This document shows positions 3,001-6,000 of a stretch of DNA of 11,573 bases, piece after piece. Made by a program: the position numbers. How positions within the stretch are numbered: position 1 is the first letter of the stretch; every line of letters begins with the position of its first letter. Source of the DNA: a virus. The stretch lies in the UHGV virus genome UHGV-1580203, one strand, 5' to 3'.

Positions 3001-6000
3001 GCATAATGTCTTTGGTCTTCGCTTCGACAGACTCCATCAGGGAGCGTTTGCCGCTGAAGTCATTATCTTCAAAATCAGCGGTCTGGTTTGCTTCAATCGT
3101 GATTTTACGGACTGCCGCAGCCGCTTTTGTTGCTTGAATGGCGTCACCATTAGCATCAAAGCCCACAAGGTAGTCGGCCCAGTCTTCGATCCATTCTGCC
3201 AGTGACCTCTGGGAGTTACGCTCGCCGTTAACAGACAACAGAGCAGAGAACGGTGCTGTCTTTTTCAGTTTGAGAGTGGCAGTGTTATCTGCGTGACCTG
3301 GCTCATCAATAGTACCCAGGTTAAGCACACTGACGGCACGCATATTATCGGCATCGATAAAGCAGCGGGTGCCTTCATCTGCAAGATCTTTAGAATAACG
3401 GGTAAAATCATCGATGCTGGCAGTGGAAAGTGCACCACGGAAACGGAAGCGATTTAAATTAAATTTTTCCAGATCATGAATGCGGAAATTCTCAGGCAAT
3501 GCCACAGCATCGGCACCAATCTTACTGATAATTTCATTAACACCCTGAGCAGAAATAAGGGCATGGATTTGATTAATTGCGGTTGCGTCTAAGTTCTGAG
3601 ACATAATAAGTCCTCACTATATAAAGATATTCAGTGATGAGATAAATAATCAGTTTATTACGAACGATATTAACGACCTGCTGCGCGGAGTTTTCCGTCA
3701 GGTTCACCGGCAAGAGTCAGTAATTGTCCCTGGTCTTCCTGCAGAATAGTCAGGCGACCACCGCGATTGACATACATCGGCGTTTCGGTGGTGTCTTCTT
3801 CGGAAATTTTCCCGCGGTTAGTTGGGCGAACATATGAGAGTTTGTGTTTGATTTTCACACGGTTCTCATCAAACGGTTCGATTTCCAGATTGAGTGAGAC
3901 CTTCCCTTTGGTTTTCGTGTTCATCACACCGGAAGCGACCTCACTGAGAACTGCGCCGATTTTGGTTTCAAATACGCCGCCGTCCAGCTCCCCGATAAAT
4001 GCCTGCACATCAGTACTGCGTTCGCTAGCCATTTTGCTGCTCCTCATCATATCGACCCTGCAAGGTCGGTTGGTTTCTCCACAAAACAGAGAAGAACACC
4101 TGCGGTGGCAGCCGCCCGGATGGATTGGGTTATGAGCCCGTCGTCCGGTGATGCTCTTCTCTGTTTTGTAAAAAGAGCGGTGCCAGCCGGAAGCAAGTGT
4201 ACAAACTGGTACCGCCAAAGCAGTGGCTGTTGTGGTGCCGGGTGCCTCCCGGTGCCTGGCGAAGGTTGCACACCAGGCGGGTGGGTATCCACAGAAGGTC
4301 GACTGTCAGCCTCAACCTTAACCCGCGTGCGCTGAGCCGCATTCACCACAACGCTAAGGATTCTCTCTGGTTGAAAATACTTAGCTGTTATGTGCCTGCT
4401 TTTAGCCACATCAGGCGAGGTGGACCTGGTTATTCCCCAACAACAAGGATTCGGTTAATCTTGATACCCCCAATAACATGGTGATTATTTAAGATGGACA
4501 AATTTGATAGAAGTGCACAAAGGCAGTTGTTACAAATACTGTATGATGCTCATCCTTATGAAATTTCTGATGATGCGTTGCAGTCTGTTCGTGACGCATT
4601 TGGAGATGATAATGTCCTAATTTCGAACTTAATTTATCTCGAAGAACATGGCTTGATTAAGAATGCTCTTGATTATTACTTGGATGGCATAAATATAAAT
4701 ATTCCTGAATTAAGAATTACTAAAGATGGAATTGATTTCATTCGTGATGATGGAGGTCTTAAAGCTATTCTTGGGATTATGACAATAAGATTGCATGATG
4801 AGACTCTCTGTGAACTTGAACGTATCATCAATAGTTCTACTTCTGCCACGACTGAAGATAAGAAGAAATTACTCTCTCAGCTTCGAACGCTTCCTGCCGA
4901 CGCCATAAAACAGCTGACGATTCGATTACTTGGTCAGGGGCTTGACCATCTGCCGGACGTATTTCACGTAATTCAAAAAGCCCTCCATTCTCTGTAAATT
5001 CTGATTCTGGTCGGATTAGACAGAATCGTCCCCATCCGACCTGCTTACTAAGTAGAATCCAGAATTCGTCTTGTTGGTTGGTGCTGATAAAAAATCCATT
5101 AGGATGAACGTAAGCACAGAATATGACCATAGAACCCTCTTTTGTTACGGGGATACTAAGATTGTTAAAGAGCTAAGCGTCCTGTAGGGCGCTTTTTTGT
5201 TGCTAACGAATCATCCTGGACTTCATATGCCCCAGGCGGCTACTTCGTGGGCGTCCTGCCTGTTCGTTTTTGACATTTACTGACTGCTTACGACACATGC
5301 ACCGTGTTGCAACCAGATTTTGTTGTAATCCTGTAGTTGGTCTGGAACAAAAGATAAAATTAAATTGCGAGATATGCAAGTGATATTTGCGAGATATGCA
5401 AATTTATAGGTAATAAAAAGCCACCTTTCGGTGGCCGATGGATGGGATATTGAGGTTAATTATGTCTCTTAAGGGTTTGCGACTGACTGATTAAGACCTT
5501 TCCAAAGACCATGAATCGGTGTTCGTTTTCGCTAGTAATTCCCCATTCACGGTAAATCTGGTTATCAGAAATCACCAGCAGTTTGTCAGGAATCATTTGA
5601 AGTCTTTTAACGTATATTTTGTCATCAAAACCAAAGACATATATACCATCACCATCAAACTGATTGATGCTGACATCAACGAAGATGAGATCTCCTGGCT
5701 CAATGGTTGGACACATACTGTCCCCACGAACGTTGATAACTTTGATGTGATTGGCTGGTCGTCCGCCGAACATTGATACAGCATTATCAGTTCTGTATTC
5801 GATGGCATGAATCACATCAATGACATCACCGCCCTGGATAAGGCCATTTCCCGCACTGGCACTGATATCCAGCATTTCAATACGGAACACATCCTTCACC
5901 TGCGCAACATCCTCATTATTACTGTTTTTATATACAGTATTACTTTTGTGGGCAGAGGTAAAGAGATCAGCAATATCAACACCTAAGCTCTTGGCAATAT

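Follow-up and report, generated by a model that had tools for sequence, protein, structure and literature searches.

The 11,573-nucleotide (nt) stretch of virus genome UHGV-1580203 analyzed here (the window) is a lambdoid prophage of Escherichia coli that belongs to the KplE1/SfV/SfII type and has inserted at a tRNA-Arg gene; it raises the question of what is encoded at positions 4494–5199, between the early-left genes and the CI-type repressor. An original prediction, made from this one sequence, had placed here a single AT-rich orphan gene (ORF167; ORF, open reading frame) with a structured 3′ untranslated region (UTR), possibly acting together with the upstream block at 4045–4490 as a two-part RNA plus protein module. 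Comparison of homologous loci leads to a different answer: On sequence evidence, the cassette is a widespread antisense-overlapping gene pair, the second member of which, ORF97, is largely unannotated (table 1). We consider this two-gene overlapping architecture very probable.

ORF97 was first seen by clustering all ORFs around 26 homologous loci, where an antisense ORF overlaps the 3′ end of the ORF167 homolog and runs 127–184 nt past its stop codon. With a profile built from these ORFs, a convergent ORF97 homolog was found in 91 of 107 loci; the overlap measures 152–218 nt and is always 2 modulo 3, and the relative frame never varies among the antisense ORFs, which continue for 118–360 nt beyond the ORF167 stop. 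The survey covered about 120 loci, found via ORF167 homologs and, for a few, through called ORF97 proteins; 63 distinct ORF97 homolog proteins were obtained. That the frame itself is maintained can be seen from 76 distinct sequences, 62 of which leave the ORF97 frame open, compared with one of 76 for each of the other minus-strand frames.

The substitution patterns indicate that both frames are under selection at the protein level. Codons 1–44 of ORF97 (4998–5130) form its N-terminal coding part and lie outside ORF167; this part is conserved as protein, with the motifs M.I..A.FHPNGFF and FWV.LS..LGWGRF, and pairwise differences here amount to 0.43, 0.33, and 0.61 at the first, second, and third ORF97 codon positions. 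Within the overlap it is ORF167 that carries the trace of its partner: Third-position differences of ORF167 are 0.655 outside the overlap and only 0.354 within it, and an identical ORF167 residue is encoded by an identical codon in 41% of cases outside and 70% inside. A natural control is provided by 14 loci in which stop codons close the ORF97 frame, found among Xanthomonadales, Janthinobacterium, Kluyvera, and others; these show no suppression in the same zone (0.70 to 0.73), whereas in 14 equally diverged loci that keep ORF97 the suppression is present (0.70 to 0.48).

An aligned ATG with an upstream Shine–Dalgarno-like motif is present in 46 of the 63 distinct ORF97 homologs. AlphaFold modeling from a 55-sequence alignment gave a mean predicted local distance difference test (pLDDT) score of 83 for ORF97, with five beta strands followed by a C-terminal helix; searches of this protein returned no fold or family match and no match in PADLOC-DB 2.0.0. 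It is not hydrophobic (maximum 19-residue hydropathy 0.71) and is predicted to be cytoplasmic and soluble. Gene finders seldom call ORF97: Among 5.8 billion proteins, single-sequence searching recovered 5 clusters and profile searching 80, all labeled "hypothetical," and the gene is unannotated in the RefSeq records of E. coli NCTC86, phage GF-2, and phage PhiR49_2.

The segment downstream of ORF167 has thus to be read in the light of ORF97. Both perfect inverted repeats on which the idea of a structured, regulatory 3′ UTR was built do exist, GATTCTG/CAGAATC at 5003–5009/5021–5027 and GGTCGGAT/ATCCGACC at 5009–5016/5034–5041; the idea itself did not hold, as the region 4995–5205 folds with z = −1.57 (13 of 200 shuffles fold as well) and its part 4998–5130 codes for the N-terminus of ORF97. 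Each hairpin keeps all of its pairs in just 2 of 60 homologs, and both fall in ORF97 codons 30–43, which encode the GWGRF motif. The predicted plus-strand-specific terminator after ORF167 was borne out as a terminator-like site, the hairpin at 5175–5194 being followed by a T tract on the plus strand and by AGCTCTTTAAC, without a T tract, on the minus strand. It is conserved in the related phage Kati, where homology to the window resumes at 5159; it should be noted that terminator-like sites are frequent in 3900–6400 (7, against 1.9 expected from shuffles). Since the terminator lies beyond the ORF97 start, a transcript of ORF167 would run antisense through the whole of ORF97 and its ribosome-binding site.

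ORF167 is present as the 167-codon ATG ORF originally described, and its AT-richness is equally clear: 4621–4680 contains 18 G+C in 60 positions, and 4494–4836, the part outside the overlap, is 33.8% G+C against 48.8% for the window. The base composition of the cassette deviates from that of the surrounding phage, as is characteristic of morons. The label "orphan" has to be dropped, as ORF167 belongs to PHROG 3983 (E = 2.6e-59); searching 1.84 billion representative proteins with a profile yielded 1135 relatives (representatives of clusters at 50% identity), nearly all of 155–175 amino acids (aa), and more than 500 IMG/VR stretches encode one. The AlphaFold model (pLDDT 77) has an N-terminal winged helix and four C-terminal helices, in agreement with the predicted winged helix-turn-helix-like N-terminal and helical C-terminal halves. 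ORF167 has no sequence match in Pfam, NCBIfam, PADLOC, or the PDB, the last also searched with a profile. The family is acidic (median isoelectric point 5.3), is predicted to be cytoplasmic and soluble without a membrane segment, and has a conserved DDGGL motif. No published description of the ORF167/ORF97 family was found in the literature, and none under RefSeq accession WP_000357060. A second antisense ORF family lies fully inside the central part of ORF167 homologs at seven loci (L002, L013, L017, L018, L023, L026, and L029); these embedded ORFs are probably a by-product of the conserved DDGGL region.

Judging by their distribution, the two genes are passed on and transferred together. When modules from unrelated contexts are compared, homology at the nucleotide level extends from 9–50 nt before the ORF167 ATG to within a few bases of the ORF97 start, and by the families of the flanking genes we distinguish 51 context types; neighboring genes were called crudely as longest ORFs, and many loci are mutually related. 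Upstream of ORF167, the window segment 4387–4493 is 78.5% identical to the region before the ORF167 homolog in a Salmonella prophage (L112) of different context. The commonest location is between the Q antiterminator and holin genes; others are between HNH and terS, between Rz and terS, within a tail or tape-measure cluster, behind an Arc/Mnt-like gene in the immI region of Edwardsiella phage GF-2, next to Cox and integrase in an early operon of Salmonella, in Proteus with BstA and cI as neighbors, and, as in the window, in the pL-proximal slot.

Across at least 51 contexts, these comparisons indicate that ORF97 runs nearly always with lytic transcription and ORF167 against it. In 84 nonidentical contexts, the gene upstream of ORF97 lies on the ORF97 strand in 75, and both neighbors do so in 56; running against lytic transcription, as noted originally for ORF167 in this one prophage, is a family-wide trait. 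In the common Q-to-holin context, locus L077 shows Q, a pR′-like promoter, a tR′-like terminator, and then the Shine–Dalgarno motif and ATG of ORF97, with holin following. Five nonenteric prophages (L004, L011, L016, L083, and L086) have ORF97 starting at, or overlapping, the stop codon of a Cro-like gene; a gene for a CI-like repressor, toward which ORF167 points, is divergent from the Cro-like gene. Of the 26 loci, 11 encode a CI-like repressor no more than 3 kb from the module. The BstA and cI neighbors in one Proteus prophage fit an accessory locus expressed in the lysogen.

In the window, as in Proteus, ORF97 is the first ORF after pL, and the first sizeable one that leftward transcription from OL/pL meets. 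The operator repeat TTGCGAGATATGCA has 7 matches against 1.4 expected; besides the perfect copies in OL/pL, related copies lie at 6169 and 6218, between cI and cro. These operators at 5365 and 5387, together with the copies at 6169 and 6218, put OL/pL where the original prediction had assumed it, reading leftward through the cassette; we infer the exact position of the pL promoter hexamers.

The surroundings of the cassette confirm the suspected accessory slot, since related phages share its flanks and differ in cargo. In SfII, SfV, and mEp460_4F5, the match to the window breaks off at 4423 and resumes at 5205; the interval holds a 63-aa protein gene on the plus strand, orf33 (98 aa) on the minus strand, and a 122-aa HTH_17 protein gene on the minus strand, respectively; SfIV also has the shared flanks with other cargo. 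Kati matches up to 4477 and again from 5159, terminator included, with a different plus-strand gene behind 4477. Its cargo (L007 2002–2614, corresponding to window 4478–5158) is likewise a convergent pair, of 144 aa (plus strand) and 68 aa (minus strand), which overlap by 29 nt and have no Pfam or PADLOC match; it uses the same upstream 54 nt (window 4424–4477) and the same terminator (5159–5204), as if these formed a shared expression socket. Among complete E. coli genomes, 1444 of 5426 match part of 4400–5250, and 76 match the whole.

The proposed coupling to the block at 4045–4490 was not upheld by the gene-neighborhood survey suggested for it, and the distribution of the GC-rich block shows it to be separate from the pair. 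SfII, SfV, mEp460, and Kati have the block without ORF167; among the approximately 120 loci, near-identical E. coli prophages are the only ones with the full block next to an ORF167 homolog, a Mangrovibacter locus retains 127 nt of the block, and the Salmonella loci L112/L113 share only the last ~107 nt before the ORF167 start. Its G+C content was also set too high, at about 65%: We find 53% over 4045–4490, 57.5% over 4100–4400, and a 200-nt maximum of 60.5%. The block contains a 25-nt inverted repeat (4081–4105/4145–4169) and its minus strand forms a much better fold (z = −4.6) than the plus strand does (z = −2.4). On the minus strand, 4231–4350 matches positions 31–147 of the STnc100 model (RF02076) with 35.6 bits, and Kati, SfII, SfV, and mEp460 have full-model matches of 36.3–43.4 bits, all below the gathering score of 47; by these matches the block is probably a divergent STnc100 relative.

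Table 1. Features of the window in order of position.
Feature	Position	Strand	Remarks
tRNA-Arg, 3′ part	1–49		
Integrase	68–1231	−	
yfdT, yfdR, yfdQ, yfdP-like early-left genes	down to 3670–4032	−	
GC-rich block	4045–4423		Between yfdP and the slot
ORF167 upstream region	4387–4493	+	Travels with the module; contains the promoter-like site
Promoter-like site	TTGATA 4461–4466; GATTAT 4483–4488	+	Predicted; 16-nt spacing; ends 5 nt before the ORF167 ATG; 9/12 consensus
ORF167/ORF97 cassette	4494–5199		Between GC-rich block and CI-type repressor
ORF167	4494–4997	+	ATG ORF, 167 aa; soluble acidic 18.9-kDa protein; PHROG 3983
ORF97	5130–4837	−	97 aa; ATG at 5130, stop 4839–4837; 161-nt overlap (4837–4997) with the ORF167 3′ end
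Shine–Dalgarno-like AAGAGGG	5135–5141	−	4 nt before the ORF97 ATG
Intrinsic-terminator-like hairpin and T tract	5175–5199	+	5175–5194: 8 pairs (5 G-C), then TTTTTGTTG
Conserved junction segment	5205–5271		67 nt; adjoins the variable slot on the right and belongs to the pL leader before ORF97; borders from blastn
OL/pL region	5345–5400	−	Two perfect TTGCGAGATATGCA operator copies, 5365–5378 and 5387–5400
cI terminator	5436–5419	−	After cI
CI-type S24 repressor	5456–6148	−	
cro	6246	+	Followed by replication genes

Several further observations concern the borders and neighbors of the module. The junction segment 5205–5271 is common to SfII, SfV, mEp460, and Kati whatever their immunity region (87–99.6% identity across the four), and E. 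coli NCTC86 diverges from the window within it, at 5267; it may mark a recombination junction or act at the RNA level, for instance as a nut-like site. The right neighbor varies too, with three right-flank families among the near-identical E. coli modules; in NCTC86 (L001 7122–8198), the module is followed by the gene of a 358-aa ParA-family ATPase, which weakly matches the PADLOC candidate system PDC-M28B, and by a different repressor. The Proteus sp. G2658 prophage (L116 833–1663) encodes a distant ORF167 paralog (165 aa; profile E = 5.6e-20) 450 nt upstream of its ORF167/ORF97 pair, with a weakly N-peptide-like gene between them on the other strand and BstA and cI to the right. The Salmonella prophage L112 has, on its minus strand at 4155–4242 and 4353–4419, a C4 antisense RNA, whose 76.6 bits exceed the gathering score, and a subthreshold isrK-like RNA; both lie about 600–850 nt left of the ORF167 homolog beside a Phage_ASH gene, a regulatory RNA cluster in a different phage type.

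How these two genes might work together is suggested by their orientation. Our favored explanation is that 4387–5204 constitutes a mobile two-gene accessory module (moron), with convergent genes that overlap at their 3′ ends and are switched with the phase of the phage, ORF97 countering ORF167; taken as a whole, we would give this about an even chance of being correct. In a lysogen, pL (elsewhere pR′ or the cro promoter) would be silent or terminated, and ORF167 would be transcribed from its own promoter to the terminator at 5175–5199; its messenger RNA (mRNA), antisense across the whole of ORF97, would keep ORF97 silent. Upon induction or infection, lytic transcription, here from pL, would express ORF97, and polymerase collision together with antisense pairing would shut ORF167 down. 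The phase-specific expression of the two genes seems to us somewhat on the probable side, given the orientation of the pair. As the genes stay joined across so many contexts, ORF97 likely neutralizes or takes over from ORF167, most probably to spare the phage's own lytic growth. The slots occupied and the BstA neighbor make it plausible that ORF167 protects the lysogen, most likely from other phages; that the module serves in defense or exclusion, with ORF97 as the off-switch, nevertheless stays a tentative proposal. More tentative still, and rather doubtful at present, is the generalization to a widespread class of phase-toggled modules, in which a lysogeny-phase protective protein and its lytic-phase antagonist would be encoded on opposite strands of the same ~160 nt.

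Several findings weigh against this explanation. No enzymatic domain was found in ORF167, and PADLOC-DB 2.0.0 gave only CARF_m5 at chance level (E = 0.013), so that there is no direct link to defense. A role in DNA binding, or as a classical repressor, is doubtful because the family is acidic and the helix at the recognition position (residues 39–51) is net negative (mean charge −1.8; −0.6 for the wing), and no target is evident. The putative ORF167 promoter matches the consensus at 9 of 12 positions, and at four other loci that were scanned the ORF167 homolog has no promoter-like site in front of it. The crude gene calls and the relatedness of many loci, noted above, also limit what the context counts can carry. 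Finally, ORF167 occurs without ORF97 in about 14 loci, and ORF97 persists beside a broken ORF167 in L027, L028, L117, and L119; as each gene is found intact without the other, the two are not strictly interdependent.

Among the alternatives, ORF167 and ORF97 could be two independent phase-specific exclusion proteins, the former acting in the lysogen and the latter in lytic growth, with the overlap just alternating their expression. Such an arrangement has been proposed for Pseudomonas phage Fc02, a beetrevirus with opposite-strand overlapping genes transcribed in lysogeny (forward) and in lytic growth (reverse), where superinfection exclusion has been reported for both olg1 and gene 10 (Ramirez-Sanchez et al. 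2023, PMC9936078). The five loci in which repressor, cro, ORF97, and antisense ORF167 follow one another reproduce the geometry of repc, ner, gene 10, and the antisense olg genes in Fc02. However, there is no sequence similarity to beetrevirus proteins, and ORF97 is predicted to be soluble, unlike Fc02 Gp10, which is insoluble and presumed to act by blocking the injection of DNA; we regard this alternative as unlikely.

Alternatively, both proteins might modulate the choice between lysis and lysogeny via a host factor, ORF167 stabilizing lysogeny and ORF97, expressed early from pL or beside cro, promoting lytic commitment. The CI-like repressors near the module and the position of ORF97, right after cro in five loci and first after pL here and in Proteus, would suit such a role; but the commonest contexts, from Q to holin, from HNH to terS, and among tail genes, belong to late operons, far from the switch and too late to act on it, which makes this quite unlikely.

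A toxin–antitoxin or abortive-infection pair would have ORF97 as the toxin, silenced by the ORF167 mRNA in the manner of type I systems, bound by the ORF167 protein, or both. The mRNA would indeed cover the ORF97 ribosome-binding site, ORF167 is laid out like an antitoxin in which an N-terminal winged helix precedes a C-terminal binding region, and ORF97 is small and beta-rich with a C-terminal helix. Against this, ORF97 is intact beside the four broken ORF167 copies and ORF167 is intact where ORF97 is lost; moreover, placed as a read-through gene of lytic operons, ORF97 would be produced each time the phage grows lytically and not in response to an attack. The pair is neither a co-directional two-gene operon with a recognizable toxin fold, as in type II systems, nor does it include the small hydrophobic peptide of type I systems, the hydropathy of ORF97 being too low and its antisense partner being a conserved protein gene. 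We therefore consider a toxin–antitoxin function improbable.

That ORF97 is untranslated, with the conservation past the ORF167 stop due to an RNA element (a 3′ UTR or an antisense RNA) and the open frame as its by-product, could draw on the rarity of its calls by gene finders, and is very improbable in view of the period-three substitutions with the third position most variable, the 62 open frames against one in each other minus-strand frame, the ATG and Shine–Dalgarno motif conserved in most homologs, a confident AlphaFold model, which would be unexpected for a noncoding frame, and RNA structure that is not conserved. The originally proposed single protein gene with a regulatory structured 3′ UTR, acting with the 4045–4490 block as an RNA/protein immunity module, can point to hairpins and a terminator that exist and to a strongly structured block, but is hardly credible when the hairpins are not conserved, the supposed UTR has a coding substitution pattern, a conserved start, and a confident protein fold on the other strand, and the block occurs in phages without ORF167, is complete beside it only in near-identical prophages, and has its better fold and STnc100-like match on the strand opposite to ORF167.

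In bacteria and phages, long antisense overlaps that encode a functional protein on each strand are uncommon and a matter of dispute, and the ORF167/ORF97 overlap is backed by 63 distinct sequences and by a natural control in which the synonymous constraint is lost together with the partner. Standard annotation misses ORF97, and many prophage "3′ UTRs" or intergenic gaps beside accessory genes may hide similar partners. The family is large and uncharacterized, and the strict orientation rule across its contexts points to a general switch of accessory function between lysogeny and lytic growth in temperate phages. If the phase-toggled reading is true, the overlap would enforce mutually exclusive expression and keep both genes inherited together, a temperate phage could carry a defense otherwise harmful to its own lytic cycle, and the region would be among the best-supported long antisense dual-coding regions in bacterial viruses. 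The model lends itself to genetic analysis, as ORF97 codons 1–44 can be mutated without touching ORF167.

Comparison with known systems places the module beside several of them. Some likenesses concern single parts. The neighboring 4045–4423 block, not the cassette, resembles STnc100, which has been linked to the PasD prophage small RNAs (bioRxiv 10.64898/2026.05.13.724894), in its minus-strand covariance-model match and prophage location, and differs in its scores below the gathering threshold and in being about twice the length of the model. The modeled winged helix of ORF167 resembles the MarR family, but there is no Pfam MarR match at E values up to 0.1, and recognition helix and wing are not basic. 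ORF167 matches neither YjcQ (PF09639) nor DUF2513 (PF10711), nor any other Pfam model, and these winged-helix proteins, like those of the MarR type, are without its DDGGL motif and C-terminal helical half; the distant paralog in L116 scores 22.6 bits for YjcQ (23.3 needed) and 20.1 for DUF2513 (29.6 needed).

Other likenesses concern the arrangement. In the type I toxin–antitoxin loci txpA/RatA and bsrG/SR4 of Bacillus prophages, convergent transcripts overlap at their 3′ ends. The module shares with them this convergent overlap, through which one RNA could silence the other, and the location in prophages; it differs in that both partners are conserved proteins, of 97 and 167 aa, the former no small hydrophobic peptide. 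Like the lambdoid morons (lambda bor and rexAB, P22 sieA/sieB; Cumby et al. 2012, PMC3594210), the module is a putatively independent unit between conserved phage genes, of deviant base composition, with a bor-like orientation against the neighboring lytic operon, and it sits in slots of known lysogen-expressed genes (near pL, after Q, after Rz). Unlike them, it has a second, lytic-direction gene overlapping the first, and its two proteins, both predicted to be cytoplasmic and soluble, are unlike Rex, Sie, Bor, or any PADLOC defense family.

By analogy, the sole experimental precedent we found for an opposite-strand overlap that alternates between lysogeny and lytic growth is olg1/gene 10 of Fc02. 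Homology to the overlapping exclusion genes of Fc02 and B3 (where the counterpart of the reverse gene is ORF16, 163 aa) was considered and rejected, as tblastn gave no beetrevirus match and the ORF167 and ORF97 profiles reached at best E = 0.47 against B3 8901–10100. The reverse gene in Fc02 is wholly overlapped, by two forward frames, whereas ORF167 and ORF97 overlap at their 3′ ends only, over 152–218 nt; the window module lies after pL instead, and the pair is mobile among many slots and not bound to the switch. In the Fc02 lysogen, transcription of the forward olg genes proceeds toward the repressor; the reverse gene belongs to the early lytic operon, where it comes after ner/cro (PMC9936078). 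Both systems have opposite-strand overlapping protein genes that lie beside the immunity switch, and in L004, L011, L016, L083, and L086 these stand in the same order as in Fc02.

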